From an uncultured delta proteobacterium (GTDB lineage: Bacteria > Myxococcota_A > Polyangia > Polyangiales > B10-G4), in assembly GCA_963727445.1 (NCBI GenBank), contig CAVSGI010000004.1:192001-256000 (forward strand): DNA of 64,000 nt, in the 5' to 3' direction. Below the pieces are notes generated by a model that ran no database searches, was not told the DNA's origin, and worked only from the letters and a program-made list of their open reading frames with translations. This document shows, in pieces, positions 42,531-59,377 of the stretch (positions within the stretch are counted from its first letter, which is position 1; each line of letters begins with the position of its first letter). Both the position numbers and the translations under genes were made by a program.

Positions 42531-43268
42531 TCAGAAGGAGGCGCCTGCGCTGATGTAGAACCAGGGGATGATCCCCCAGCTGTTGGGATCGGGGTTCGAG
42601 AGCGACAGCCCCGGCCCATAGAGCGCCGCGGCGCCGACACGGAAGTTGAAGCCGCCGTTCATCGGGTGGATCCGGTAGCCGATGTGGGCGTTGCCGATCG
42701 CGCTGGCGCCAGAGCCGGTCGCGGTCAGACCGCCGGCGCTCGCCGAGCCGTCCGTGAATATCATCGTCGCACCGGCGCCGATCTCGAGCACGTGAGAGCC
42801 GGCCCTCAGGCCCAGGTACTCCGCCGTCAGTGGCACGGTGACGTACGACACGTTCGAGCTACTCGTACCCACGTTCGAGCCGTAGGACATGTAGCTGAAG
42901 CCGATGCGAACGCCGAGCTGGTCGAAGAGCAGGCGCTCGTAGTTCACCGAGTAGAAGAGGCCTGCGCCCAGGCCCTCGACGAAGATCGTGTTCGGCGCGG
43001 GGTGCTCTTCTTCGACGTCGGTCGGCACGACGACCGTTCCGGGTGTCGCCGCCGGTGTCGCGGCAGGGGTGGTGGTCGCGGTGGTCGGCCCGGTGGTGGT
43101 CGTCTGCGATCCCATGGGCTGCATCACTGGAGCCGAGCTCTGTCCCGTCGTCCCCGTTCCCGCTTCCGAACCTTCTTCGTCGGTGGCGTCGGGATCGGCG
43201 GCGTAGGCGGTCGCGGTCTGTGCGAGTAAGAGACCGGCGGCGATCATCGGTAGTGACTTCGTGAGCAT
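42531..43268 (-). CDS. Small outer-membrane beta-barrel protein
   Basis: Signal peptide, Thr-rich linker, NTIFVEGLGAGLFYSVNYER and terminal WFYISAGASF (aromatic C-terminus). Confidence 0.7.
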   Translation of the reverse strand: MLTKSLPMIAAGLLLAQTATAYAADPDATDEEGSEAGTGTTGQSSAPVMQPMGSQTTTTGPTTATTTPAATPAATPGTVVVPTDVEEEHPAPNTIFVEGLGAGLFYSVNYERLLFDQLGVRIGFSYMSYGSNVGTSSSNVSYVTVPLTAEYLGLRAGSHVLEIGAGATMIFTDGSASAGGLTATGSGASAIGNAHIGYRIHPMNGGFNFRVGAAALYGPGLSLSNPDPNSWGIIPWFYISAGASF

Positions 43269-43433: not shown

Positions 43434-45812
43434 TCAGCGACGCGATCGACGTCGAAAGAAAAGCGAAGAGGTGATGAATACGGCAAACGCCAGCGCGTCG
43501 AAGCGCGTCTCATCGCGACCGACGATGATGCAACCGCAACCGCCATCGCCCATCGGCGGTGCAACGGTGCCGGTGTCTGCATCGGGCGCGCCACCGTCGG
43601 CGCGGGGCACCCTCGCATCGGATGTGCCTGCGTCCTCGGAGACGCAGGTCGTGGCGCCCGCACCTCCGCTCAGCGTGATCGCGAGCCAGCCTTTCGGGCG
43701 ATTGAACCCGCGATCCGACAGATCGTCCCGCTTCTGTGCGACGGCGAGGAGCGTCGTCGTCTCGCCATCGGCGACGTCGAGGCAGAGCGTCAGGTCCGTT
43801 CCGTCGGACTCGGAGACGAGCGCACCGTCCCGATAGAGGCGCAGCACGTCGACGCCGATGGCTTCGGGATCCATCGCGTGGATGGTCAACGCTCGGGCGT
43901 CCGCGATCGTGTCTCCATCCGCGGCGCCGTCGATGCTCACCACCGGGCGCGTGGCGTAAGGCGCCAGCATCGGATCGCCGAGCACCAGGTTCTGCCAGTA
44001 CACGTTGGGCAGGTTGCGGTGATAGGCCTCGGCGAGGGTGGCGCCGTCGACGTATTGAGTGATCAGCGATCGCGCGGGGAACACCGAGTTGAGTGGCTCG
44101 TCGGTGGTGCCGTGAACGCCGCCCACACCGCGCGCGACCCAGCGCGCGATCGAGACCTGTCTCTCCATGGAGGGGTCGTCGAAGTTCTCGGGCACCGCGC
44201 CGAAGCTCGTCAGGTTGTCGACGAGCGCGCCCGGGGCGAAGTCGTTGCCCTCGATGGTGTCGCCGATGGTCGCCGTGCCGGTGAAGAAGGCCGCGAGGGT
44301 GTGACCGGTGAGGTCGGCGTCGAAAGGCACTTGGCGCGCATCGGTGTAGCCGCGATCCATCAGGTCGCTGATCACGCGCGGGTACTGGCCGTCGAGGGCC
44401 CCGCGCGCGGGGTCTCTTCCTTCCATGAAGAGGAACTCTCCTGCGGCGCCGCCCATCGCCTCCGCTTCGAGTGCGCTGTCGAGGAGCATCTCCGCCTCGC
44501 TGAAGGAGCGCCCGTGGAGCATCGTCACCAGCACCGGGCGGAAGTCGACGCCGCCAACGCTCTCTGCCCAGCCCGGCTCGAAGAGCCCACTGTGGAAGGG
44601 GTTGGCGAAGCGGGCGGCGTAGCAGGGCGTCCCGGTGCAATCCGCCGTGACGCCAGGCGCCTGACCGAGGAGGGCGGCTCCGTCCATGGTCGTGTCCCAG
44701 AGCCCGAGCGCGGCCGCGAGCGACACCCGTCGCGTGGTCGCCCCGTCCGGGATGCGCACCCTGAGGGGCACGCCGCGGATGACGAGCACGGCCTCGATGC
44801 GGTCGCGGACGCCTGCGGCCTCGAGGCACGCGCCCAGGGGCGTCAGGATCTGGTCGCGAAAGTCCGCGAGGTCGATGTCGATCACTGTGTCGATCGACAG
44901 AGCGCAGACCTGCCCCATGGGCACGTCGCGTTCGCGCGCGTAGCGCTCCGCGAGCGCGACCGACTCGGGGACGTCGGCGTTCGCCAACACCGCGGTCGTC
45001 GCGGGGCCGGGGACGGCGTAGGCCGCCGACGCGTGGGTGAGGGTGATGGCCGACAGGGCGAGGGCACCCGCGAGCGCCCGCCGGCGCCGCAACAGGAAGA
45101 GGAGCACCAGCATCGCGAGCGCCCAACCGCCCTCTGGCGGCAGAGCCGTCGTCGCACAACCGCCCGCGACGATCGTCTCCGGCGGGGGCGCGCCTTCGAC
45201 GCGGAGCGATTGGGAGATCACGCCGACGCGATCGCCCACGCTGGTGCCGTTGCCGTTGCCGCGGACCTCGGCTGCGTGGATCCACGCCGTACCCGCGCTC
45301 GGATCGGAAGGCGCGGTCCAGGTGAGGCGGCTGGTCCGCGCGCCACAGGCCCGCGCGATGGCGAGGGGCCGACCATCCGCCGTGGTCTGGAGCTCCGTCG
45401 CGCCCTCGGGGAGCATCCCCCCCTCGGCCCGGCAGCGCTCCTCGTCGGCGATCTCGCTGTCGGGCAGGAGCGAGAGCGTCCCGATGGCCCCGCCGTCTCG
45501 GTCCGTGACCTCGAGCACCATGCCTCGATCGCCATCGCTGAGGCCCATGTCGAAGGAGAGCTCGTAGCTCGCGCCCGGCCGGTAGCCTGCCTCGGGCAGC
45601 CCGCGCACCTCGAAGGGGATGTCGGGCTCGCCGTGACAGACGGCGCAGGTGAACCCGTCGTTCGGCGATCCGGTGAACCACCGTCCACCGCCCCCGCCCG
45701 CATCGGCGGCGAGGTCGAAGCGCCCCGGATCGGAAAAAGCGTGCGCCCGCGCCGGCCCGAGCGCGACCGTGAGCGCCGCGATCGCGACGAGAGGCAGCGC
45801 TCTCATGGGCAC
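43434..45812 (-). CDS. Composite surface protein: Reeler/choice-of-anchor-V-like domain + internal MYXO-CTERM-like segment + TIGR03790-like domain + C-terminal MYXO-CTERM
   Basis: Signal ending AHA; TCAVCH; internal GGC...LLFLLRRRR; VLANADVPESVALAERYA, GALVDNLTSFG, GTTDEP and WQNLVLGDPM; C-terminal GGCGC...FFRRRSRR. Confidence 0.7.
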   Translation of the reverse strand: MPMRALPLVAIAALTVALGPARAHAFSDPGRFDLAADAGGGGGRWFTGSPNDGFTCAVCHGEPDIPFEVRGLPEAGYRPGASYELSFDMGLSDGDRGMVLEVTDRDGGAIGTLSLLPDSEIADEERCRAEGGMLPEGATELQTTADGRPLAIARACGARTSRLTWTAPSDPSAGTAWIHAAEVRGNGNGTSVGDRVGVISQSLRVEGAPPPETIVAGGCATTALPPEGGWALAMLVLLFLLRRRRALAGALALSAITLTHASAAYAVPGPATTAVLANADVPESVALAERYARERDVPMGQVCALSIDTVIDIDLADFRDQILTPLGACLEAAGVRDRIEAVLVIRGVPLRVRIPDGATTRRVSLAAALGLWDTTMDGAALLGQAPGVTADCTGTPCYAARFANPFHSGLFEPGWAESVGGVDFRPVLVTMLHGRSFSEAEMLLDSALEAEAMGGAAGEFLFMEGRDPARGALDGQYPRVISDLMDRGYTDARQVPFDADLTGHTLAAFFTGTATIGDTIEGNDFAPGALVDNLTSFGAVPENFDDPSMERQVSIARWVARGVGGVHGTTDEPLNSVFPARSLITQYVDGATLAEAYHRNLPNVYWQNLVLGDPMLAPYATRPVVSIDGAADGDTIADARALTIHAMDPEAIGVDVLRLYRDGALVSESDGTDLTLCLDVADGETTTLLAVAQKRDDLSDRGFNRPKGWLAITLSGGAGATTCVSEDAGTSDARVPRADGGAPDADTGTVAPPMGDGGCGCIIVGRDETRFDALAFAVFITSSLFFRRRSRR

Positions 45813-46273
45813 GTCACCATCCGCCCGTGCGCCCAGTCGCGGATCGTGACGAAGTCGGGATCCTCTTTGCTTCGATAGACGTCCCGGCCGAGCTCGTCGC
45901 GACCCATGTGCCCGGCGCCGCCCGCTTCGATCGCCAGCGGCTTGCGCAGCAGCGGCGCGTCATCGACCGATTGCGCCCCGCCGAGCATCGAGCGCGCGCG
46001 ATCGTAGGTGAGAGCGATCTCGTCGTCGGTGGGGCCGTCGAGCTGCGGGGTCATCGGATCGAGGCGGGTGCGCCCCGGCGCGAAGACCTGAAAGGCCCGA
46101 TGCATGGTGCCGTGGCACGCAGGGAAGCCGCAGTCCCGCGCCAAGACCGGATAGACCTCGAGCTCGAAGGCGCACTGGTCCACGGGTGGGGGATGGGGCT
46201 CCGGGGCCGCGCCGACACAGGCGGTCGCCAGGGAGCTGAGGGCCAACAGAAGGAGGACGACCGAGCGCGACAT
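45803..46273 (-). CDS. Lipoprotein with CX4CH motif (cytochrome c-like)
   Basis: ATAC lipobox; FELEVYPVLARDCGFPACHG...LLRKPL...HMG...IRDW. Confidence 0.6.
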   Translation of the reverse strand: MSRSVVLLLLALSSLATACVGAAPEPHPPPVDQCAFELEVYPVLARDCGFPACHGTMHRAFQVFAPGRTRLDPMTPQLDGPTDDEIALTYDRARSMLGGAQSVDDAPLLRKPLAIEAGGAGHMGRDELGRDVYRSKEDPDFVTIRDWAHGRMVTCP

Positions 46274-46742: not shown

Positions 46743-47918
46743 ATGATTGGACCCCGCACACTCACTGCCGTCCTCGCCTTGGCCCTGGGCTGTAACGCCG
46801 GAACCATCGCGATGGAGCGGCTTCCTTATGACGGTGGAGCCGACTCCGGTTCCACCATGGACGAGGACGCCATGGTCATCGAGGAGATGGCCGCGCGCGA
46901 CCTCTTCGATAGCACTGTGCTCCCACTCCTCGAGTCGAACTGCGTCTCGTGTCACGGCGAGAGCGGCTCGGTGGTGGGATACCGCTTCCTCACGCCGGAT
47001 CCCGACATCTATACGTCGGTCACCAGCTGGCCGGCGCTCGTCAGCCGCGCCAATCCGACCTCTAGCCGCATCCTGACGCTGGACAGCACGCACCCGGGCC
47101 CCGAGTGGAGCACCACCCAGGCCGACACCGTGCAGCGCTGGCTCGAGCGCGAGGGCGAGGAGTATGCCGGCAGCGGTGAGGAGCCCGACCTCATCACCGA
47201 CGCGAAGGTGCTCGAGGCAGGTCTCAACCTCTTCCCCCTCGACGTCCTCGGCCTGCCCGGGAGCCAGCTCAGCCTCACCGCCGAGCCCACCCCCGCGGGT
47301 TGGTACCTGTCCAACATCGAGGTGAACGCCGGCGCCGACGGCGTCCGCATGTCGCATCCGGTCATCATCCAATGGGTCGACGGAGACGCGACGGTCGATC
47401 CGAGCGATCGCTTCGCGGGCATGGACGTGGTCGCCCCCGCCTACACCCGGGTCGCCGTGGGCGGCGGCACCGCGAGCCTCTCGGGTCTGCCCGACGGCGC
47501 GAGCATCAGCTGGCACTTCGACGCCGCGGGCCCCGAGTCGGGTGGCACCGGCGGTGGCGACGGCGGCGTGGGCGGCGGTGACGCCGGCATGGGCACGACC
47601 ACCGGTGGCTGTACGGCGCTTCCCTCCTTCACGGCGAACGTGCGCCCGCAGCTGATGATGTACTGCACGAGCTGCCACGACGGCAGCAACCCCGACGCGA
47701 TGTCGGCCGTCGACATGTCGAACGTCGCCGATAGCAGCGACTCGGCGCAGGCGCTGGCCTGCGGCCAGATCCTCTCGCGCTCCCGCGGCGCGACCCCGTC
47801 CATTCTCCTCGCGCCCGATTCCACTGGGGGTCTGGCGCACCCGTTCCGGCTGAGCTCGTTCCAGCTGGCGACGTTCAGCGCGGCGATCACCGATTGGGTC
47901 GCCATGGAGGCTCCCTGA
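46743..47918 (+). CDS. Di-heme c-type cytochrome lipoprotein
   Basis: ALGC lipobox; CVSCH and CTSCH, each in an F..V.P.L...CxxCH context. Confidence 0.7.
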   Translation: MIGPRTLTAVLALALGCNAGTIAMERLPYDGGADSGSTMDEDAMVIEEMAARDLFDSTVLPLLESNCVSCHGESGSVVGYRFLTPDPDIYTSVTSWPALVSRANPTSSRILTLDSTHPGPEWSTTQADTVQRWLEREGEEYAGSGEEPDLITDAKVLEAGLNLFPLDVLGLPGSQLSLTAEPTPAGWYLSNIEVNAGADGVRMSHPVIIQWVDGDATVDPSDRFAGMDVVAPAYTRVAVGGGTASLSGLPDGASISWHFDAAGPESGGTGGGDGGVGGGDAGMGTTTGGCTALPSFTANVRPQLMMYCTSCHDGSNPDAMSAVDMSNVADSSDSAQALACGQILSRSRGATPSILLAPDSTGGLAHPFRLSSFQLATFSAAITDWVAMEAP

Positions 47919-49162
47919 TGAAGCGACTTCTCGAGGCCCTCGCGCTCACCGGTGTCATCGCCGGGCTCGGCTGCCAGGGTGGCGTGTCGGGCTCTGCGCG
48001 CGACGCGGTGCCGGATGCGACCCCCGACCCCGCGAGCGATCCCGGGACGTCCGACACCCCCGCCGACGGCGTGGTCGCCGACGACACCACCGGGACCGAC
48101 GACACCACGCCCGACTGGGCGGCCGGTGAGCTCTCGCCCGAGTGGCAGGGGCGCCTCGACGACCGGGACCTCGACTACGGCGCCGCGCTGCGGACCGCGT
48201 CCCTTCGTCTGCGCGGCGACCTGCCGACGCTCCTCGAGATCCGCATGCTCGACGAAGCCACCGACCAGGCGTCGGTCTACCGCTCCTTTCTCGAGTCCTT
48301 CATCACCGACGATCGCTTCATCCCGCAGATCCGGAACTACTTCCGCGACACCTTCAAGATGGGCCGCGGCGACCTCGACACCGCCCCGCTCTTCGCCGCC
48401 GAGCTCGCGGTGGAGGGACGGAGCATGACCGAGCTCTTCACCGCGACGAACGGCACCTGCCCCACGATGCAGGACGAAGCCATCGTCCCCGCCGATTGCG
48501 ACAACGGCGTCCCCACCCACGCCGGCATCCTCACCAACCCGGCGGTGATGCGGCACTTCAACAGCAACCTGGCGTTCCGCCGGGTGCGCTGGGTGCAGGA
48601 GACCTTCGCCTGCAACGCCTTCCCCGCCGAGCTCGGCGACCCCATCGACATCGGAGGCGCGGCTCCCTACACCGCGCCGTGGCCCTTCGAGAGCATCGCG
48701 GGCGCCGACACGGGCGGGCGCATCGACTTCCACGACATCGAGAGCGTCACCTGCGCGAACTGCCACGCGACGATGAACCACCAGGCCCCGCTCTTCGGAC
48801 ACTTCGACGCCGACGGCCGCTGGAGCGACTCCATCGCCGTCACCCTGCCGAGCGATGGATCGCCCCTGGTCGCCATGTCGGACTGGCTCCCGGACGGCGA
48901 GACCACCGCGTGGCGCTTCGGTGTGCCGGCGGCCGACCTGCCTGCCTTCGGCGCAGCGATGGCCGCGGACCGCGACGTGCACCGCTGCACCGTCTCCCGC
49001 GCCTGGAACTGGGCGATGGGGAAGGGAGACATCGTGCTGACCCGCGCGGCGGTTCCGGACGAGGTCATCGACACCATGGTCGACGACTACATCGCATCGG
49101 GGCACCGCATGGACCAGCTGCTCCTCGCCATCTTCACCTCCGACGACTTCGTCAACTTCTGA
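47918..49162 (+). CDS. Lipoprotein with heme-c motif (PSCyt/DUF1588-like)
   Basis: GLGC lipobox; LRTASLRLRGDLPT, HAGILT, FRRVRWVQETFAC and CANCHATMN. Confidence 0.6.
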   Translation: MKRLLEALALTGVIAGLGCQGGVSGSARDAVPDATPDPASDPGTSDTPADGVVADDTTGTDDTTPDWAAGELSPEWQGRLDDRDLDYGAALRTASLRLRGDLPTLLEIRMLDEATDQASVYRSFLESFITDDRFIPQIRNYFRDTFKMGRGDLDTAPLFAAELAVEGRSMTELFTATNGTCPTMQDEAIVPADCDNGVPTHAGILTNPAVMRHFNSNLAFRRVRWVQETFACNAFPAELGDPIDIGGAAPYTAPWPFESIAGADTGGRIDFHDIESVTCANCHATMNHQAPLFGHFDADGRWSDSIAVTLPSDGSPLVAMSDWLPDGETTAWRFGVPAADLPAFGAAMAADRDVHRCTVSRAWNWAMGKGDIVLTRAAVPDEVIDTMVDDYIASGHRMDQLLLAIFTSDDFVNF

Positions 49163-49902
49163 TGCTGGCCATGATGATGAAGAACACCCGATACCTCGTC
49201 CTCGCCGCGCTCCTGGTCGCCTGTGGTCAGGGCAGCGAAAGTGGTCGCGACGACTATCTGTCGCCGACCGATCCCGAAGCCGCCGCCGCCACCGGCACGG
49301 CGCCGGGGAGCGAAGAAGGCGGCGCCGCCAGCGGAACCGAGAGCACCTTCGACCACCCCGCGGCCCTCGGCGGCTCGGCGGTGACCGCGCGCGAGGCCCT
49401 CGAGCGCATGGCCGAAGAGGGACCCCCCGGCTACACCGCGCGCATCCACGGCTGCCGGAAGATGCCGTACCGCACCCTCGGCCGCGTGCTCGCCGGTCTC
49501 GGCGTGAACCTCGACGCAATGGGTGAGACCGACGCTGGCAACATGTGGCGCCGGTCGGACCAGGCGCTCGGCGCCGCCAACTACGGCGCTCGCATCGGCG
49601 AGAGCACCGAGGTCACGGTCTCCGTCGCCTCGCGCACCTTCGACATCCTCGTCCAGGCCGCCCCGGAGGTCATCGCCAACCTTCCGAGCGTCGAGCGCTG
49701 CATGATCGGTGGCGTCGGCGTGAGCGTCTTCGACGGTGCGGGTCACTGCACCCGTGATGGCCTCAGCTGCCTCCTCGGCGAGCCCGCGAGCGATGTCGTC
49801 GTCGCCCAGTGTGACGACGTGGTGCGACGCGCCGCCGACCCCGCCCAGGGGCAGGCAATCGCGGTCGCCTCTCTTCTCTCTGCTGCCCACACCTGCGAAT
49901 GA
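49162..49902 (+). CDS. Hypothetical Cys-containing lipoprotein
   Basis: LVAC lipobox; coupled to both neighbours by overlapping stop/start codons. Confidence 0.6.
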   Translation: MLAMMMKNTRYLVLAALLVACGQGSESGRDDYLSPTDPEAAAATGTAPGSEEGGAASGTESTFDHPAALGGSAVTAREALERMAEEGPPGYTARIHGCRKMPYRTLGRVLAGLGVNLDAMGETDAGNMWRRSDQALGAANYGARIGESTEVTVSVASRTFDILVQAAPEVIANLPSVERCMIGGVGVSVFDGAGHCTRDGLSCLLGEPASDVVVAQCDDVVRRAADPAQGQAIAVASLLSAAHTCE

Positions 49903-51305
49903 GGACGAAAGACATGAGCACCAAGAAAGAAAGAGAGAGAAAGCGTCGCGTCGGGCGCCGTGCGCTCATGAAGTGGAGCCTGGCTGCGGGTGCGGCCTTC
50001 GGTCTGCCCCAGTGGAAGGTCTTCGAGGTCCTGGAGATGACCGGCGGCAAGGCCCTCGCCGACGACGCCTCCTGCGCGACCACAAACCGCTCGGTGCACA
50101 TCGTCGCCGGCCGCGGCGGCTTCGCCTGGTTCACGCTTCTGTGGCCGCACAACGACATCGCCGCCGCCCGCAACTCGAGCTTCGCCTGGCACGCCATCGG
50201 CGAAGAGATGATGGCGGAGGACACCCACAAGCCCCTCACCCTCGGGCCCCACACGCCGTGGCAGTCCCTGCCCGGCGGCCGTCAGGTCACCTGCCTCATG
50301 GGCGGCACCAACGAGACGCATACCAACACCCCCGCGACGACCGAGCGCGTCTCCATGAACAACGGGCTCTTCGCCACCTGCGCGGCCATCCAGACCGCCA
50401 GCCCCACCGTGGTGCCGGTCATCGCCGTGGACGACGCGCCCTACCGCGGCGCCGAGGGCTCGCCCCGCGTGGCGCGCGTCGGGAGCGCGAACGACATCGT
50501 CTCCCTCTTCAACGCCGCGGCCTCGCGCGCGGGCGGCCTGCTCAGCAATCCTCAGAACGCCGAGCTCTACTCGAACGCCTACAGCGCGTTCCTCAGCCTT
50601 CGCGCCGCCGCCGGTCGCGAGACCATGCGCGCCGGACACGCGGCGGCCACGCGCTCGGCGCAGCTCCTCGGCCAGAACCTCGCCGACCGGCTCCGCCCGA
50701 CCGACGAGGACTTCGCCCGCTACGGCATCGACGCCGGGAGCCGCACCGAGAACCGCAACCTGGCGCGCGGTCTCATCGTCACCGCCAAGGCCTTCTCCCT
50801 CGGTCTCACCTCCTCGGTGATCCTCCCGGCGTTCCGCGACGACCCCCACGGCGCCTTCGCCGACATGGGGAACCTCACCAACACCGTGAGCACGTTGCAG
50901 CGCACCCTCGACGCCTTCATGGGCGACCTCGACGCGGTCGACGACCCGACCTGCTCGGGCACCTCCATCGGTGACAACACCGTGATCTCCATCCACGGCG
51001 ACACCCCGAAGAACCCGCTCCAGCGCGCCAACTGGCCCGACGGAACCCCGGGCAACGCCAACTGGACCTACGTCCTCGGCGCTGGCTATCTGAAGACCGG
51101 CTGGTTCGGCGGCATCAATCGCGGCGGCAACGTCACGACCTACAATCCCACCACCGGCGAAGACAGCGGCTCGAACACCGGCAACACCGCCGAGTCCTCG
51201 GCCGCCGCTGTCACCTACTGCGTGGCCCGAGGCGACATGCGCCGGGTGAACGACTTCTACAGCGGTGCGGACATCAACGGGCTGGTCTCGGACGCGACGG
51301 TCTGA
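49899..51305 (+). CDS. Tat-exported DUF1501/DUF1552-like protein
   Basis: Twin-arginine VGRRALMKWSLAAGAAFGL; DDPHGAF; last gene of the four-gene operon. Confidence 0.6.
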   Translation: MRTKDMSTKKERERKRRVGRRALMKWSLAAGAAFGLPQWKVFEVLEMTGGKALADDASCATTNRSVHIVAGRGGFAWFTLLWPHNDIAAARNSSFAWHAIGEEMMAEDTHKPLTLGPHTPWQSLPGGRQVTCLMGGTNETHTNTPATTERVSMNNGLFATCAAIQTASPTVVPVIAVDDAPYRGAEGSPRVARVGSANDIVSLFNAAASRAGGLLSNPQNAELYSNAYSAFLSLRAAAGRETMRAGHAAATRSAQLLGQNLADRLRPTDEDFARYGIDAGSRTENRNLARGLIVTAKAFSLGLTSSVILPAFRDDPHGAFADMGNLTNTVSTLQRTLDAFMGDLDAVDDPTCSGTSIGDNTVISIHGDTPKNPLQRANWPDGTPGNANWTYVLGAGYLKTGWFGGINRGGNVTTYNPTTGEDSGSNTGNTAESSAAAVTYCVARGDMRRVNDFYSGADINGLVSDATV

Positions 51306-54473: not shown

Positions 54474-55814
54474 TTATGAATCATCCCGGGAATTCACGCG
54501 GACCCACGGATAGCCGAAAAGCGTGTCCTTTTCGGCCGCGAGGTCGGTGGAAGGGTCGATCAGGCGGCGGCTCCGGTGGCCGTTCGTCGAGACGAAGACG
54601 TCGGCGTAGACTTGGACGCGCTCGCCCCGCGCCGCGTGCTCGTCGCGGAGGTGATGGGCGTACTGGAGGATCAGATCGGGCTGGGTCGCCATCTGATGCA
54701 CCTGAGGCGCGGTGAGCTCGCGCGCGGGTGAGATCTCCTCGACGCGGCCGTCTTCGTGGACGACGCGAAAGCTCGCGAGGCCGCTTCGCTCGACGATCAT
54801 GACGTACCAGGACCAGCGAAAGCCCTGCTCGGTCTCGAGCACGTTGCCCGGATAGAGGTGGTGGCGGAGCGGGAGCGCGATCTGGATGGCGAGCCAGAGC
54901 GCGAGCGCATACGTCGCCGGGCGGGCGAGCGCGTGTGGCGTCGTCGACGGTGCGGGCGCTTCGAGTCGGCCGCGCGAGAGCGCGATGGGCCAGTCCGGAT
55001 CGAAGAAGATCGGCGTCAGCGCGATCATGATCCACGGGAACATGCCGATGGGGAACAGGATGCGCGTGACGACGTGGAAGACGATGACGACGACGTACGC
55101 CGCGGTGCGGGTGCGCCGGAGAGAGAGCCAGAGCGGGATCGTGAGATCGAAGGCCGCGCCCCCCCAGCTCATCGCGTACGCGACCCACCCTTGCGCGACG
55201 AGTGGTCCGAGGATCGGCACGTCGCTGCGCGCCGCGAGCCAGATCCCGAGCGGCTCCGCGTGGAAGAGCCAGTCGGGCTCGAGCTTCGCCACGCCCGCGA
55301 AGAAGTAGATGATGCCGAGCTGGGCGCGCAGCGCGAAGACCGCCGCGAAAGGCACCGTGGGGTCGAGGGGTCGGCCGCGCCGGCGCGCGCGCGAGGCGTC
55401 GAGGGAGAGCACGTTCGCGGCGGGCATGACGGCGAGCAGGGCCGCGATGAGGGTGATGGCGTAGTAGTGGTTGAGGTAGGTCGTGACGTCGATCAGCTCG
55501 ACCCAGGCGAAGAGGACGAGGAACGACACGATGGCGACGCGGTAGAAGAGCCCGAGGGCCACCAGGAGCGCGGCCGCGCCCAGGAGCGCGAAGTGCAGGT
55601 ACATGAGCGGCGCGGGCCATGCGCGGACGAAGCCGAAGCCGTAGTACGTGAAGTGAAAGCGCGGCTCCACGTAGAGCGAGTCGATCCAACCGTTGGCCGC
55701 GAAGCGGATCGTCGCCCAGAGCATGACGGCCCCGAAGAGGATCCGGAGCGCCGCGAGGGAATGCCCGGGGACGCGTCGACCCAGGAGCTCCCTCAACCTG
55801 TCGATGGGCGCCAC
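54474..55814 (-). CDS. HTTM / vitamin-K-dependent gamma-carboxylase-like membrane protein
   Basis: SLAALRILFG, YLNHYY, IYFFAGVAKLEPDW, IGMFPWIM, RWSWYVM, QPDLILQYA and VYADVFVSTNG...LIDP. Confidence 0.85.
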   Translation of the reverse strand: MAPIDRLRELLGRRVPGHSLAALRILFGAVMLWATIRFAANGWIDSLYVEPRFHFTYYGFGFVRAWPAPLMYLHFALLGAAALLVALGLFYRVAIVSFLVLFAWVELIDVTTYLNHYYAITLIAALLAVMPAANVLSLDASRARRRGRPLDPTVPFAAVFALRAQLGIIYFFAGVAKLEPDWLFHAEPLGIWLAARSDVPILGPLVAQGWVAYAMSWGGAAFDLTIPLWLSLRRTRTAAYVVVIVFHVVTRILFPIGMFPWIMIALTPIFFDPDWPIALSRGRLEAPAPSTTPHALARPATYALALWLAIQIALPLRHHLYPGNVLETEQGFRWSWYVMIVERSGLASFRVVHEDGRVEEISPARELTAPQVHQMATQPDLILQYAHHLRDEHAARGERVQVYADVFVSTNGHRSRRLIDPSTDLAAEKDTLFGYPWVRVNSRDDS

Positions 55815-55828
55815 GTCGGAGGCCCGCT

Positions 55829-58259
55829 TCAGTACGACAGGCGCAGCCCGACGAATGCCTGGCGCGTCATCCCGGGTTGGATGCCGGCGGGAGCGCGGCT
55901 CGCGATGTAGCGTGCATCGAAGAGGTTTCGGACCTCGCCGAAGACGGTCACGTGCCACGGCGCGTAGGCGTAGGCGACGCGCATGTTCACGACGGTGCGC
56001 GCGCCGATGAGCCCCGCGGTGCCGTCCAGCGTGGGCTCGAGCGAGTTGTAGGGGTCCGCGTACTGCGTGCTCGTGTGGTTCACCGACACCTGCGCCTCGA
56101 TTCCCAGCGGGTGTGCGAAGTCGAGGCGGGCCGACAGCGTGTGCTCGGGCACGTAGGGCACCGTGTTTCCGCTGATGCCCTCGATCCATCCGGAGCCGAA
56201 GTGGGCGCGGGCGAAGGTGTAGGCGACCGTGAGAGGGAGCTCGAAACCGAGCGATGCCGCGGTCGCGAGGTCGCAGCGCGTGCTCGCCTCGAACCCGTAG
56301 GTCGCGGAGCGACCCGCGAGCTGCGCTCCGCCCTCGGCGGTGGTCGTCGCCGCGCTGGGCGGAAGGACCTGCGTCTCGTAGTCCACGAAGAAGGCGGTCC
56401 CTTCGTAGTTCAGCCAGCGCGCCGGCTGGCCCCTGAGGCCCCACTCGAAGTTCCACGCCCACTCGGCCTGCAGGGCGACGTCGCGCCCATAGCCGAGGAT
56501 CGCGTCGCGCACGCCCGGTGGAACGAAACCGCGGTGCACGCCGCCGTAGGCTGCCAGCCCTTCGTCGACCCTCAAGGTCGCGCTGACGCCGGGGATCACG
56601 GCGACCGTCGGTCGGCTGGGCGCTCTGGGGAGGGTCGAAGGTCGTCACCGCCGGAAGCTCGTAGGTGCCATCGATGACGCCGCCGGGATCGGAGACGGCG
56701 CGGCTCACCTGGATCGAGGAGAACATGCTCTCGATGCGCACGCCGGGTGCGATCTCGAAGTGCCGGTCGAAGAACTCGAAGGTCGGGCGCAGATAGGCGG
56801 CGAGGGCGAGGACGCTGCGGGTCTGTTGTCCCTGGATGTCGCCGGTGCGTGCGTTGGGTGAGACGCCAGCGACGTCCAGGTCGTCCCCCTGTTCGTAGTG
56901 AAGGCGCACGCCACCGATGATCTCGCCAGCGACCGCGCCCAGGTCGTAGCTCGCGGTCACCCGCGGTTCGACGCCGGCGACCGTGTAGCGGCGGAGACGC
57001 CCGACGTTCGAACGCAGGAAGTAGACGGAGGAGCCGTCATTCGAGCCCGTGCCCGTCGCGGGGAGGACGTTTCCGAAAGGGTCGATGATGCGGTCGACGT
57101 CGGCGCCGGTCGCGCTGGTGCGGAGAAAGTCCTGGCGCCACCAATCGCGTGTCGTGAGGTTGAAGTAGCCGGTGGTCGCGAGGGTGACGTCGCGCGTCAG
57201 CTCGACCTGATGGGAGAGCTGGGCGGCGTAGCGGCGGATGGGGAAGCGGTCGTTCTGAGCGAAGTTTTGGAGGGCGCCGTTGTCGAACTGGAGCGTGGTG
57301 AGCCCGAGGTTCGTCGAGGTGCTGTCCTCGTCGTAGAACTGGAGCTTCACGCGGAGCTCGCCGGCGTCGTGGAGGTCGAGCGCGAGCCGACCCATGACGT
57401 CGGTCTGTCCCAGCCCCAGATGACGCGGGCCCTGGAAGCGCTGGTGCATCGCGGTGATCAGGTAGCCGACGTCGCCCACGGTGTCACCGGCCGAGGCGAA
57501 GCCGAAGTAGTAGCCGTCGGTGCCGAAGCGCGCCTCGCCGCGGAGGCTGAGCTCTGCGGGCGGGGCGAGGGTGACGAAGTTCACGACGCCGCCGATGGTG
57601 CGCGGCCCGTAGAGGATCGACGCCGCGCCACGCACGACCTCCACGCTCCGCATACGCTCGATGCGCGGCGCCACGTAGAGCTCCGGGTAGTCGTAGGGCA
57701 TCATCTGGATCGGGACGCCGTCCTCGAGGACGAGCACGTTGCGACTGCGATCGGACGAGAGGCCGCGGAAGCCGATGTTGGGGCGCAGCCCCATCCCCTC
57801 CTCGTCCCGCACCTGAACGCCGGGCACGCGGCGCAGGACATCCGACACGCTGACGGGCTGCTGGCGCTCGAGCTCGGTCTCGGAGACCGAGAACGCGGGC
57901 ACCGGCGCTTCGTCCGGATCGATGAGCCTGCCGCCGACGACCACGATGTCGCTCGTCTCGTAGTCGGCCTCGTCGAATTCGAAGTCGTCCTCGGCGTAGT
58001 CGTCCTCGGCGTAGTCGTCCTCGTAGAGGTCGTCTTCGTCCGTCTCCGAGTCCGTCTCCGAGTCCGAGTCCGTCTCCGAGTCCGAGTCCGTCTCCGAGTC
58101 GGTCTCCGTCTCCGAGTTCGTCTCGGAGTTCGTCTCCGAGTCGGTCTCCGTCTCCGAGCTCGCGCCCGCGCCCCCCTCCTGCGCCGAGGCGGGGGACGTA
58201 CAGGCGAGCGATGCGATGACGAAGAGGACGGGCGCCGCGAGGCGTGGGCGGCGCGTCAC
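55829..58259 (-). CDS. TonB-dependent receptor, FecA-like (frameshift near 56607)
   Basis: Plug LRRVPGVQV...RPNIGFRG...VLEDGVP...EVVRGAASILYGP..GGVVN; C-terminal NLFDARY...PGMTRQAFVGLRLSY. Confidence 0.88.
57985..58160 (-). repeat. Coding tandem repeats (12/18-bp SETD-type units and 15-bp DDYAE units) in the receptor N-terminus
   Basis: GTCCGTCTCCGA-type units repeated ~8 times and GTCGTCCTCGGCGTA twice. Confidence 0.8.
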
Positions 58260-58273
58260 TTCCGAAGACAAGG

Positions 58274-59377
58274 TCAGTCTCCGTCGCTCGGGTTGAAGCC
58301 GAGGCTCACCGCCAGCGTGGCGCCGACCTCGGTCGCCAGCGTGACCTCGAGATCCCCGAGGGCGTCGTAGGCTGCGTCGCCTGCCGCGTGATCGGCACCC
58401 GCCGCGTACTCGGCGAAGGGCTCGGGGAGCGCAGCGACCGCCGCATCGGCCGCGTCGAGCTCTCCGCGGACCCGCTCGGCCAGCGCCGGGTCGCGGGTCG
58501 CGAGGTAGTCGTCGAAATCGTGCGTCGTCCCCATCCAGACGTCGCGGACGCCGGCGAGGTTCGCCGCCATCGCCTCCACCGAGGCGTTGGCGTACGGCGA
58601 CTCCACGTCGTCCGGCAGGGGCGCCGCCATGTAGCCGATCGGCTCGCCGATCTTGTCGACCTTCACGTGGTCGACCAGGGCGGGTAGGGCGGTCAGGAGC
58701 TCGGAGATCGCCGAGAGCTCGGCCGGGTACACGACGTTGCCGGATTGTCCAGCCGTCGCGAGGGTGGACGCGAAGTCGCCCCCGTCGGGGCTCCACGCGT
58801 CGGCGAGGCGGGTGCTCGTGCGCGCGACGTGGTCGGTCAGCGCCGCGAGGTAGGCGCACCGCCGCATGTCCGCCAGGGCCGTCATGGTCGTGGATTCGTC
58901 GTCAGCGAAGAGCAGGTACTCGAGCGCGAACAGGCCCTTGCTCCCTCCACCGAGCGCATCGACGTAGGCGGCGTCGATCGCGTCCGTGCCCGCGATGTTC
59001 GCTTCGATGGCGGTGGGATCGGTCGGGGCGAAGGACATCTCTGGCCCGAGGTTCATTTCGTCCGCCGGCCCGAAGCCGTAGGCGAGGGTGCGCTGCCATG
59101 ACAGGAACGCGTCGCGCCACGCGCCGCGCAAGGTGGCGAGAGAGGCCGCGTCCGGCGCTCCGCAGAACGCGGTCGCAGCGTCGTCGAGGGCGGACGCTTG
59201 CATCTGCACCGACGCGTAGCCCGGCACGATCACCTCCGTGCTCACCTCGGAGAGCAGCGCCGCGCGGTCGTAGGGCGGCACGCTCGGCTCGCTACACCCG
59301 GCGGCCGAAAGGGAGATGACGAGGGTGAGCATCGGAAAGGAAGAAGAATGGGGCATCGTGATGTCGGGCTTTCTCAT
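58274..59377 (-). CDS. Imelysin-family lipoprotein (no HxxE motif)
   Basis: AAGC lipobox; WRDAFLSWQ...FGP, KGLFALEYLLF and terminal LGFNPSDGD. Confidence 0.8.
   Translation of the reverse strand: MRKPDITMPHSSSFPMLTLVISLSAAGCSEPSVPPYDRAALLSEVSTEVIVPGYASVQMQASALDDAATAFCGAPDAASLATLRGAWRDAFLSWQRTLAYGFGPADEMNLGPEMSFAPTDPTAIEANIAGTDAIDAAYVDALGGGSKGLFALEYLLFADDESTTMTALADMRRCAYLAALTDHVARTSTRLADAWSPDGGDFASTLATAGQSGNVVYPAELSAISELLTALPALVDHVKVDKIGEPIGYMAAPLPDDVESPYANASVEAMAANLAGVRDVWMGTTHDFDDYLATRDPALAERVRGELDAADAAVAALPEPFAEYAAGADHAAGDAAYDALGDLEVTLATEVGATLAVSLGFNPSDGD

Follow-up and report, generated by a model that had tools for sequence, protein, structure and literature searches.

The locus described here raises the question of whether a single bacterial gene can give rise to two separately exported and anchored surface proteins. 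In the window, by which we refer to the whole analysed stretch of 64,000 nucleotides, the initial annotation had described one uninterrupted reading frame of 792 amino acids with a MYXO-CTERM sorting tag in its interior, directly followed by what appeared to be a second signal peptide. This description is correct with respect to the reading frame, which comprises 792 codons on the minus strand (43434-45812), starts with GTG, lacks an internal stop and contains all of the named motifs. The likelier start is the ATG at 45806, which overlaps the stop codon of an upstream lipoprotein gene as ATGA and defines a protein of 790 amino acids, the same length as in its database copy. The features of the region are listed below.

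43434..45806, minus strand: whole reading frame of the predicted polyprotein precursor (790 amino acids from ATG 45806; 792 from GTG 45812)
45738..45806, minus strand: signal peptide 1, assigned from its sequence to the signal peptidase I (SPase I) type, A-H-A followed by F; A23 and A25 invariant in 9/9 fusions
45171..45737, minus strand: domain 1, a Reeler- or choice-of-anchor-V-like beta-sandwich with CxxCH, its fold also similar to the large domain of cytochrome f
45633..45647, minus strand: CxxCH motif (CAVCH), possibly a site of heme c attachment, located 30 residues downstream of the Phe predicted as mature N-terminus
45078..45167, minus strand: internal MYXO-CTERM tag (TIGR03382), composed of GGC motif (Cys219), spacer, TM1 and RRRR
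45153-45167, minus strand: GGC motif of the internal tag
45090-45125, minus strand: TM1
45078-45089, minus strand: RRRR
45036-45077, minus strand: second hydrophobic stretch
45015..45089, minus strand: signal peptide 2, with RRRR as n-region, a hydrophobic h-region and an A-x-A c-region (here A-Y-A) before xPGP; predicted SPase I cut at 45015/45014
43956..45014, minus strand: domain 2, TIGR03790 family, gingipain/caspase-like fold, first residues VPGP
43659..43952, minus strand: Ig/FnIII-like domain (Big_7 below cut-off; fold comparison with Z about 10-11)
43437..43544, minus strand: terminal MYXO-CTERM-like tail identified in the sequence, GGCGC, TM3 and RRRSRR; G758, C759 and C761 invariant
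43530-43544 and 43437-43454, minus strand: GGCGC and RRRSRR of the terminal tail
45803..46273, minus strand: upstream lipoprotein of 156 amino acids with CxxxxCH and HMG motifs, its stop overlapping the ATG of the reading frame

The joint between the two halves and its conservation

The identification of the internal segment as MYXO-CTERM tag is supported by the NCBIfam model TIGR03382, which matches residues 218-245 with 22.3 bits at a cut-off of 15.85; with TIGR03901.2 the segment reaches 17 bits, under the cut-off of 20. The tag contains a single Cys, where many MYXO-CTERM tags carry two. With about 550 residues behind it, it is not located near the C-terminus, a position that it would assume only once signal peptidase has cut. 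At the actual C-terminus, a linker connects the Ig-like domain to the GGCGC tail, which is matched by neither NCBIfam model and scores 16.5 bits with a hidden Markov model trained on the tails of this genome, while the terminal tails of the homologues P0007 and P0008 reach about 19 bits at a cut-off of 20. With respect to the globular parts, the TIGR03790 model matches residues 272-606 (103.8 bits, cut-off 67), and the choice-of-anchor V model scores 36.8 on the window protein, under the cut-off of 42 that is passed by P0011, P0012, P0014 and L022.

The fusion is conserved. Among the best 120 of 258 homologues, we found eight full-length proteins of several sources besides the window's own that are fused in the same register, with identities of 50-75% and covering 92-99% of the query, and for two of them (L005 and L124) the underlying DNA displays open frames and the same lipoprotein gene upstream. 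Relatives are assigned to Polyangiales, Sandaracinaceae or Myxococcota. Cys219, Arg242, Ala264, Ala266 and VPGP are invariant in all nine aligned fusions, whereas the residues neighbouring Cys219 vary, and in one protein (P0006) the basic cluster at the joint is weak. The segment comprising TM1, the loop and signal peptide 2 shows a pairwise identity of 25-29%, compared to 33% for signal peptide 1, 53% for domain 1 and 72% for domain 2. Cys219 and the alanines at positions -3 and -1 do not change despite this low identity. The joint preserves properties rather than sequence, as is the case for signal peptides.

The two halves and the joint in other proteins

Both halves are also found as independent proteins. 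Stand-alone TIGR03790 proteins contain about 550 amino acids and carry an N-terminal signal peptide that ends just before xPGP. Among the best 120 of 258 homologues, A-x-A precedes xPGP in 9/9 fused and 80/89 stand-alone proteins (22/120 being unscorable), and the internal A-x-A of the fusions thus coincides with the normal predicted mature start of the family. By a simple rule, the SPase I pattern consisting of a basic n-region, an h-region and small residues at -3 and -1 is found internally in all nine fused proteins, with an h-region hydropathy of 2.2-3.4 compared to a median of 2.6 in stand-alone proteins. Likewise, this genome encodes a stand-alone paralogue of domain 1 that ends with its own tag and a stop, as do most of the 42 domain-1 loci (duplicates included).

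In some of the same 42 loci, the tag of domain 1 is followed by other passengers, namely a signal peptide and DUF3570 (L022, L312, L314, L316), or a lipobox with either DUF4266 (L308) or a DUF2271-like domain, whose DUF2271 match is below cut-off (L321). DUF3570 is presumably an outer-membrane barrel and as such could not remain tied to the inner membrane, which supports cleavage at the joint. In a further locus (L309:2683-3852, plus strand), domain 1 continues in frame into a DUF4266-like lipoprotein possessing a Met of its own, and TM1 is either absent or garbled, reflecting either an intermediate state or an assembly error.

A scan of the genome identified 88 terminal tag-like matches and three credible internal tags, latter selected by eye from 17 candidates of a regular expression and 11 of a hidden Markov model. 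A signal-like segment follows the internal tag in 3/3 cases, more than chance would provide, compared to 7/75 read-through frames behind terminal tags evaluated with the same loose rule. Besides the window gene, the joint is contained in a gene on contig C2 (G000:C2:136415-138823, plus strand; L062), which encodes a lipoprotein, an internal MYXO-CTERM tag and a lipobox signal, and in a gene on contig C8 (G000:C8:80506-85596, plus strand; L063), where DUF4114 and Cys-rich MopE-like repeats precede an internal MYXO-CTERM tag and a lipobox signal. In relatives, these proteins comprise about 1400 and about 1800 amino acids, respectively; in this assembly, the former is frameshifted upstream and the frame of the latter seems shifted near its 3' end. 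The C2 family is matched in 84/151 and the C8 family, partly via its repeats, in 70/151 genomes of the order, in both cases including the unpublished genome G122. Among the top 30 loci of the C2 family, 28 are fused (one of them, L069, being from G122), one starts past the joint, and in L093 two genes are naturally found instead of one, the lipoprotein signal being preceded by a stop, an AAGGAG site and a new Met, whereas 27 of the top 30 C8 loci were parsed as fused. Phylum-wide, the C2-family joint is found in 24/29 loci. The loci were collected as top matches to joint-spanning queries and these fractions thus lean towards fusion. Both the Cys motif of the tag and the lipobox Cys are retained at the joints of these sister families.

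As judged from these sequences, the combination of a tag and a second signal is modular. The suggestion that RRRR serves both as the end of the first sorting signal and as the n-region of the second signal peptide is true for the window protein. As a conserved feature, we have rejected it, since loop lengths in the two sister families range from 6 to 40 residues and a long repeat is found in its place in L316. In this locus (L316:1653-4196, plus strand), the cytoplasmic loop has grown into a Ser/Pro/Thr/Arg repeat far longer than in the close relative L314, with the frame remaining intact.

Proposed processing and its alternatives

The open and conserved frame, the independent existence of both halves with their own signals and the presence of genes for myxosortase and SPase I in the genome make it probable, in our view, that one precursor would be cut at a membrane hairpin to yield two separately lipid-anchored proteins. 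The cognate myxosortase matches Mrt_core (NF040914) with 119.3 bits, above the cut-off of 100, and there are three SPase I genes. In the proposed mechanism, signal peptide 1 would take domain 1 through the Sec translocon and subsequently be removed, after which TM1 would halt transfer with RRRR remaining cytoplasmic. The second hydrophobic stretch would then restart export and SPase I would cleave after Ala266, freeing a second protein that begins with VPGP, as in the stand-alone family. TM3 would again stop transfer, and both tags would undergo lipidation on Cys and subsequent cleavage by myxosortase, as proposed for TraA. In the end, both proteins would be anchored and a hairpin of about 47 residues would be discarded.

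Cutting one precursor into several proteins is better known from viruses; in bacteria, polyproteins that are processed by housekeeping signal peptidases are considered rare and exceptional. In Bradyrhizobium japonicum FbcH and in flavivirus prM-E, a membrane anchor is followed by an internal signal that is cut by signal peptidase to release a second protein. In its predicted features, the window protein shares this arrangement of anchor and internal signal, but the two known cases are unrelated in sequence and are not known to contain a sortase-type tag or a lipid anchor. We found no relevant paper on bacterial polyproteins with internal signal peptides and signal peptidase, and none on a tag-plus-signal joint in a literature search with incomplete coverage of subscription journals.

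The assumption that MYXO-CTERM is strictly C-terminal does not hold, since an internal copy has already been published for MXAN_5598 of Myxococcus xanthus. In the part of the study that we draw on, rare reading frames are described to carry an internal MYXO-CTERM, MXAN_5598 is considered a likely fusion of two genes, and its N-terminal part is proposed to be processed and anchored, for which myxosortase would have to accept a tag that is extended far beyond its C-terminal end (Guo, Haft, Wall, mBio 2025, PMC11980579). The window protein resembles this case in containing an internal tag within an apparent two-gene fusion. It differs in that both of its halves are predicted to be tagged, whereas the second half of MXAN_5598 is an outer-membrane barrel with an OmpA domain, and in that its joint recurs in several families; moreover, the passage on MXAN_5598 names neither a second signal peptide nor a polyprotein. 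Orthologues of MXAN_5598 beside ftsZ were found in none of 30 short and 14 longer loci. The part of an earlier preprint that we consulted contains no mention of an internal tag, a fusion or a polyprotein (Haft, bioRxiv 10.1101/2023.06.07.544157). The known TraA/MrtX system shares the Cys motif, helix and basic tail, and its Mrt_core enzyme has a counterpart encoded in this genome, whereas in the window protein another export signal and about 550 residues lie behind one of the two tags. As the cleavage of TraA by MrtX was rebuilt in E. coli according to the same source (PMC11980579), the processing model is directly testable. In Haloferax volcanii, HVO_0405 also originates from a gene fusion, and its central sorting tag was shown to be cleaved by a sortase-like enzyme; the archaeal example involves an archaeosortase and PGF-CTERM, is described as strain-specific and, as far as its description was accessible, is not ascribed a second signal peptide (PMC7157517). 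Based on the predicted features and this partial view of the literature, the tag-plus-signal joint is a recurring design and a variant of MYXO-CTERM sorting with a partial published precedent in MXAN_5598.

Of the alternatives to cleavage into two anchored proteins, we first consider that SPase I frees the second protein while the internal tag is not processed by myxosortase, leaving domain 1 held in the inner membrane by the hairpin of TM1, loop and signal. The score of the tag under the cut-off of TIGR03901.2 and the fact that cleavage of an internal MYXO-CTERM stands as a proposal in the consulted part of PMC11980579 would be in line with such a scenario, which we nevertheless hold to be unlikely given the invariance of Cys219 amid varying neighbours in 9/9 fusions, the retention of the Cys motif in sister families and the cleavage of the internal archaeal tag of HVO_0405 (PMC7157517).

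Alternatively, the product might be a normal membrane protein that is not cleaved, has three helices and two domains in the periplasm, and retains the signals as relics of the fusion. Such relics are frequent in fusions and the full-length model contains helices at 226-241 and 246-259, albeit with low confidence. It is difficult to reconcile this view with an Ala pair at -3 and -1 that does not vary despite an overall identity of about 50% and that is located exactly at the mature start of the stand-alone proteins, or with the lipobox Cys retained at the sister joints, and we thus regard it as distinctly improbable.

Very improbable, in our opinion, is that the second protein would mostly be made from an in-frame start within TM1, which would turn the gene into two nested genes. 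There are ATG, GTG and TTG codons in the window 33, 31 and 26 codons before VPGP, inside TM1, of which the TTG before RRRR would yield a normal signal peptide. These codons are not conserved in the two other DNA copies, and a Shine-Dalgarno-like site is missing before them in 3/3 DNA copies and found at only 2/28 and 1/27 joints of the sister families, where eight joints are devoid of ATG, GTG and TTG altogether. Also, domain 1 would still be made solely as long precursor, as there is no stop at the joint.

Finally, an assembly error joining two genes through a lost stop, although frameshifts in other genes of this assembly call for evidence from homologues, is scarcely credible in light of eight further proteins fused in identical register, with L005 and L124 confirmed in DNA. 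This check rests on the homologues; the contigs of two runs contain scattered parts of the gene and leave the joint uncovered.

The distribution of the window-type fusion is patchy and not monophyletic. It is found in 2/401 genomes of the order, whereas stand-alone TIGR03790 proteins are found in 36, and a first metagenome scan using the N-terminal third as query had returned no matches. Domain 1 and TIGR03790 were not found as separate adjoining genes in any of 156 TIGR03790 loci, a number that includes duplicates and loci with flanks of 1.5 to about 7 kb. In a tree of domain 2 with 23 rows, consisting of the nine fused and 14 stand-alone proteins selected from a first tree, the fused proteins require at least three changes and their grouping in a joint clade is rejected (AU test, p 4e-79); four changes are needed in a quick tree with 45 rows. 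A genome of the same genus (G001) contains a stand-alone TIGR03790 copy behind an unrelated gene, which nests among the fused proteins, as do P0010 and P0013, two stand-alone proteins from short contigs that were analysed at protein level only. The fusion probably arose by loss of the stop between neighbouring genes, and both fusion and its loss seem easy, as would be expected for a joint from which the parent proteins are recovered; we propose that the fusion is tolerated for this reason. The fixed 1:1 stoichiometry ascribed to the two products would follow from the layout. As purpose of the fusion, we have rejected it, since its rarity, its lack of monophyly and the attachment of domain 1 to other passengers provide no support for selection on this ratio.

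The joint is conserved and takes varied passengers with SPase I or lipobox signals, and a single genome contains it in at least three families. If the proposed processing is true, the annotation of such genes as encoding single proteins would be wrong, internal tags would be substrates of myxosortase and Sec would be able to resume export past a sorting tag.

The predicted products and neighbouring genes

Since the full-length model is poor, with a pLDDT of 50 and low confidence for residues 1-61, domain 2 was folded alone, resulting in a pLDDT of 96.5. Together with the Ig-like domain, it superimposes on the catalytic and Ig domains of the gingipains RgpB/Kgp (peptidase C25) with a Z of 19.2 and an rmsd of 4.7 over 351 residues, but with an identity of only 12%. 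At the positions that we take to correspond to the gingipain His and Cys, as placed by motif, we find Thr in 106/110 and Ser in 110/110 proteins, and a separate His is conserved in 108/110. In light of these replacements, domain 2 is probably not a cysteine protease, and its model would identify it as a probable non-cysteine or inactive relative of gingipains. No relevant paper on TIGR03790 was found.

In fold comparisons of its predicted model, domain 1 resembles Reeler (Z 10.8, rmsd 3.2, 126 residues) and the large domain of cytochrome f (Z 9.5, rmsd 3.6, 143 residues). A sequence profile search with the domain retrieved Reeler at an E-value of 0.006, whereas neither a chain nor a Pfam family of cytochrome f was listed. 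In cytochrome f, the amine of the N-terminal Tyr is a heme ligand. With a rule that preferred these residues, the predicted mature N-terminus after A-x-A is a Phe or Tyr in 44/46 homologues of domain 1, and in 38 of the 46 the CxxCH motif follows at a fixed spacing of exactly 30 residues. Like in cytochrome f, the motif would thus be found close to an aromatic processed N-terminus on a beta-sandwich domain, although domain 1 is about 60 residues shorter and unmatched at the level of sequence profiles. Taking this pattern together with the known N-terminal ligation, the modelled domain 1 may represent a cytochrome f-type heme c protein, and genes for cytochrome c assembly are present in the genome. 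The resemblance could bear on the origin of cytochrome f; we found no relevant paper connecting cytochrome f with Reeler. Tentatively, and with considerable doubt, one might go further and envisage for myxobacteria a general and modular joint of sorting tag, basic loop and new signal peptide, allowing any neighbouring exported genes to fuse and split freely. Its first product here would be a surface cytochrome of the cytochrome f type, found outside oxygenic phototrophs and with heme ligation by the processed N-terminus. The matches to GspD in this genome are all under cut-off and export to the surface by type II secretion is therefore not established here.

The upstream lipoprotein (45803-46273, minus strand) is conserved immediately upstream of domain 1 in 29/42 loci (duplicates included) and is a possible heme partner. 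Elsewhere in the assembly, we noticed probable frameshifts, as in a TonB-receptor-like gene that continues in an unrelated membrane-protein frame (window 54474-58859, minus strand) and in a secretin gene that is found in pieces (G000:C18:38782-40748). The secreted protein encoded downstream of the fused gene (42531-43268, minus strand) shows alternating C-terminal strands and a final Phe, similar to an outer-membrane barrel; it is not found beside the fused gene in the relatives examined. A divergent cluster (46743-51305, plus strand) encodes lipoproteins with CxxCH motifs, with only weak matches to cytochrome c, and a protein with a Tat signal.
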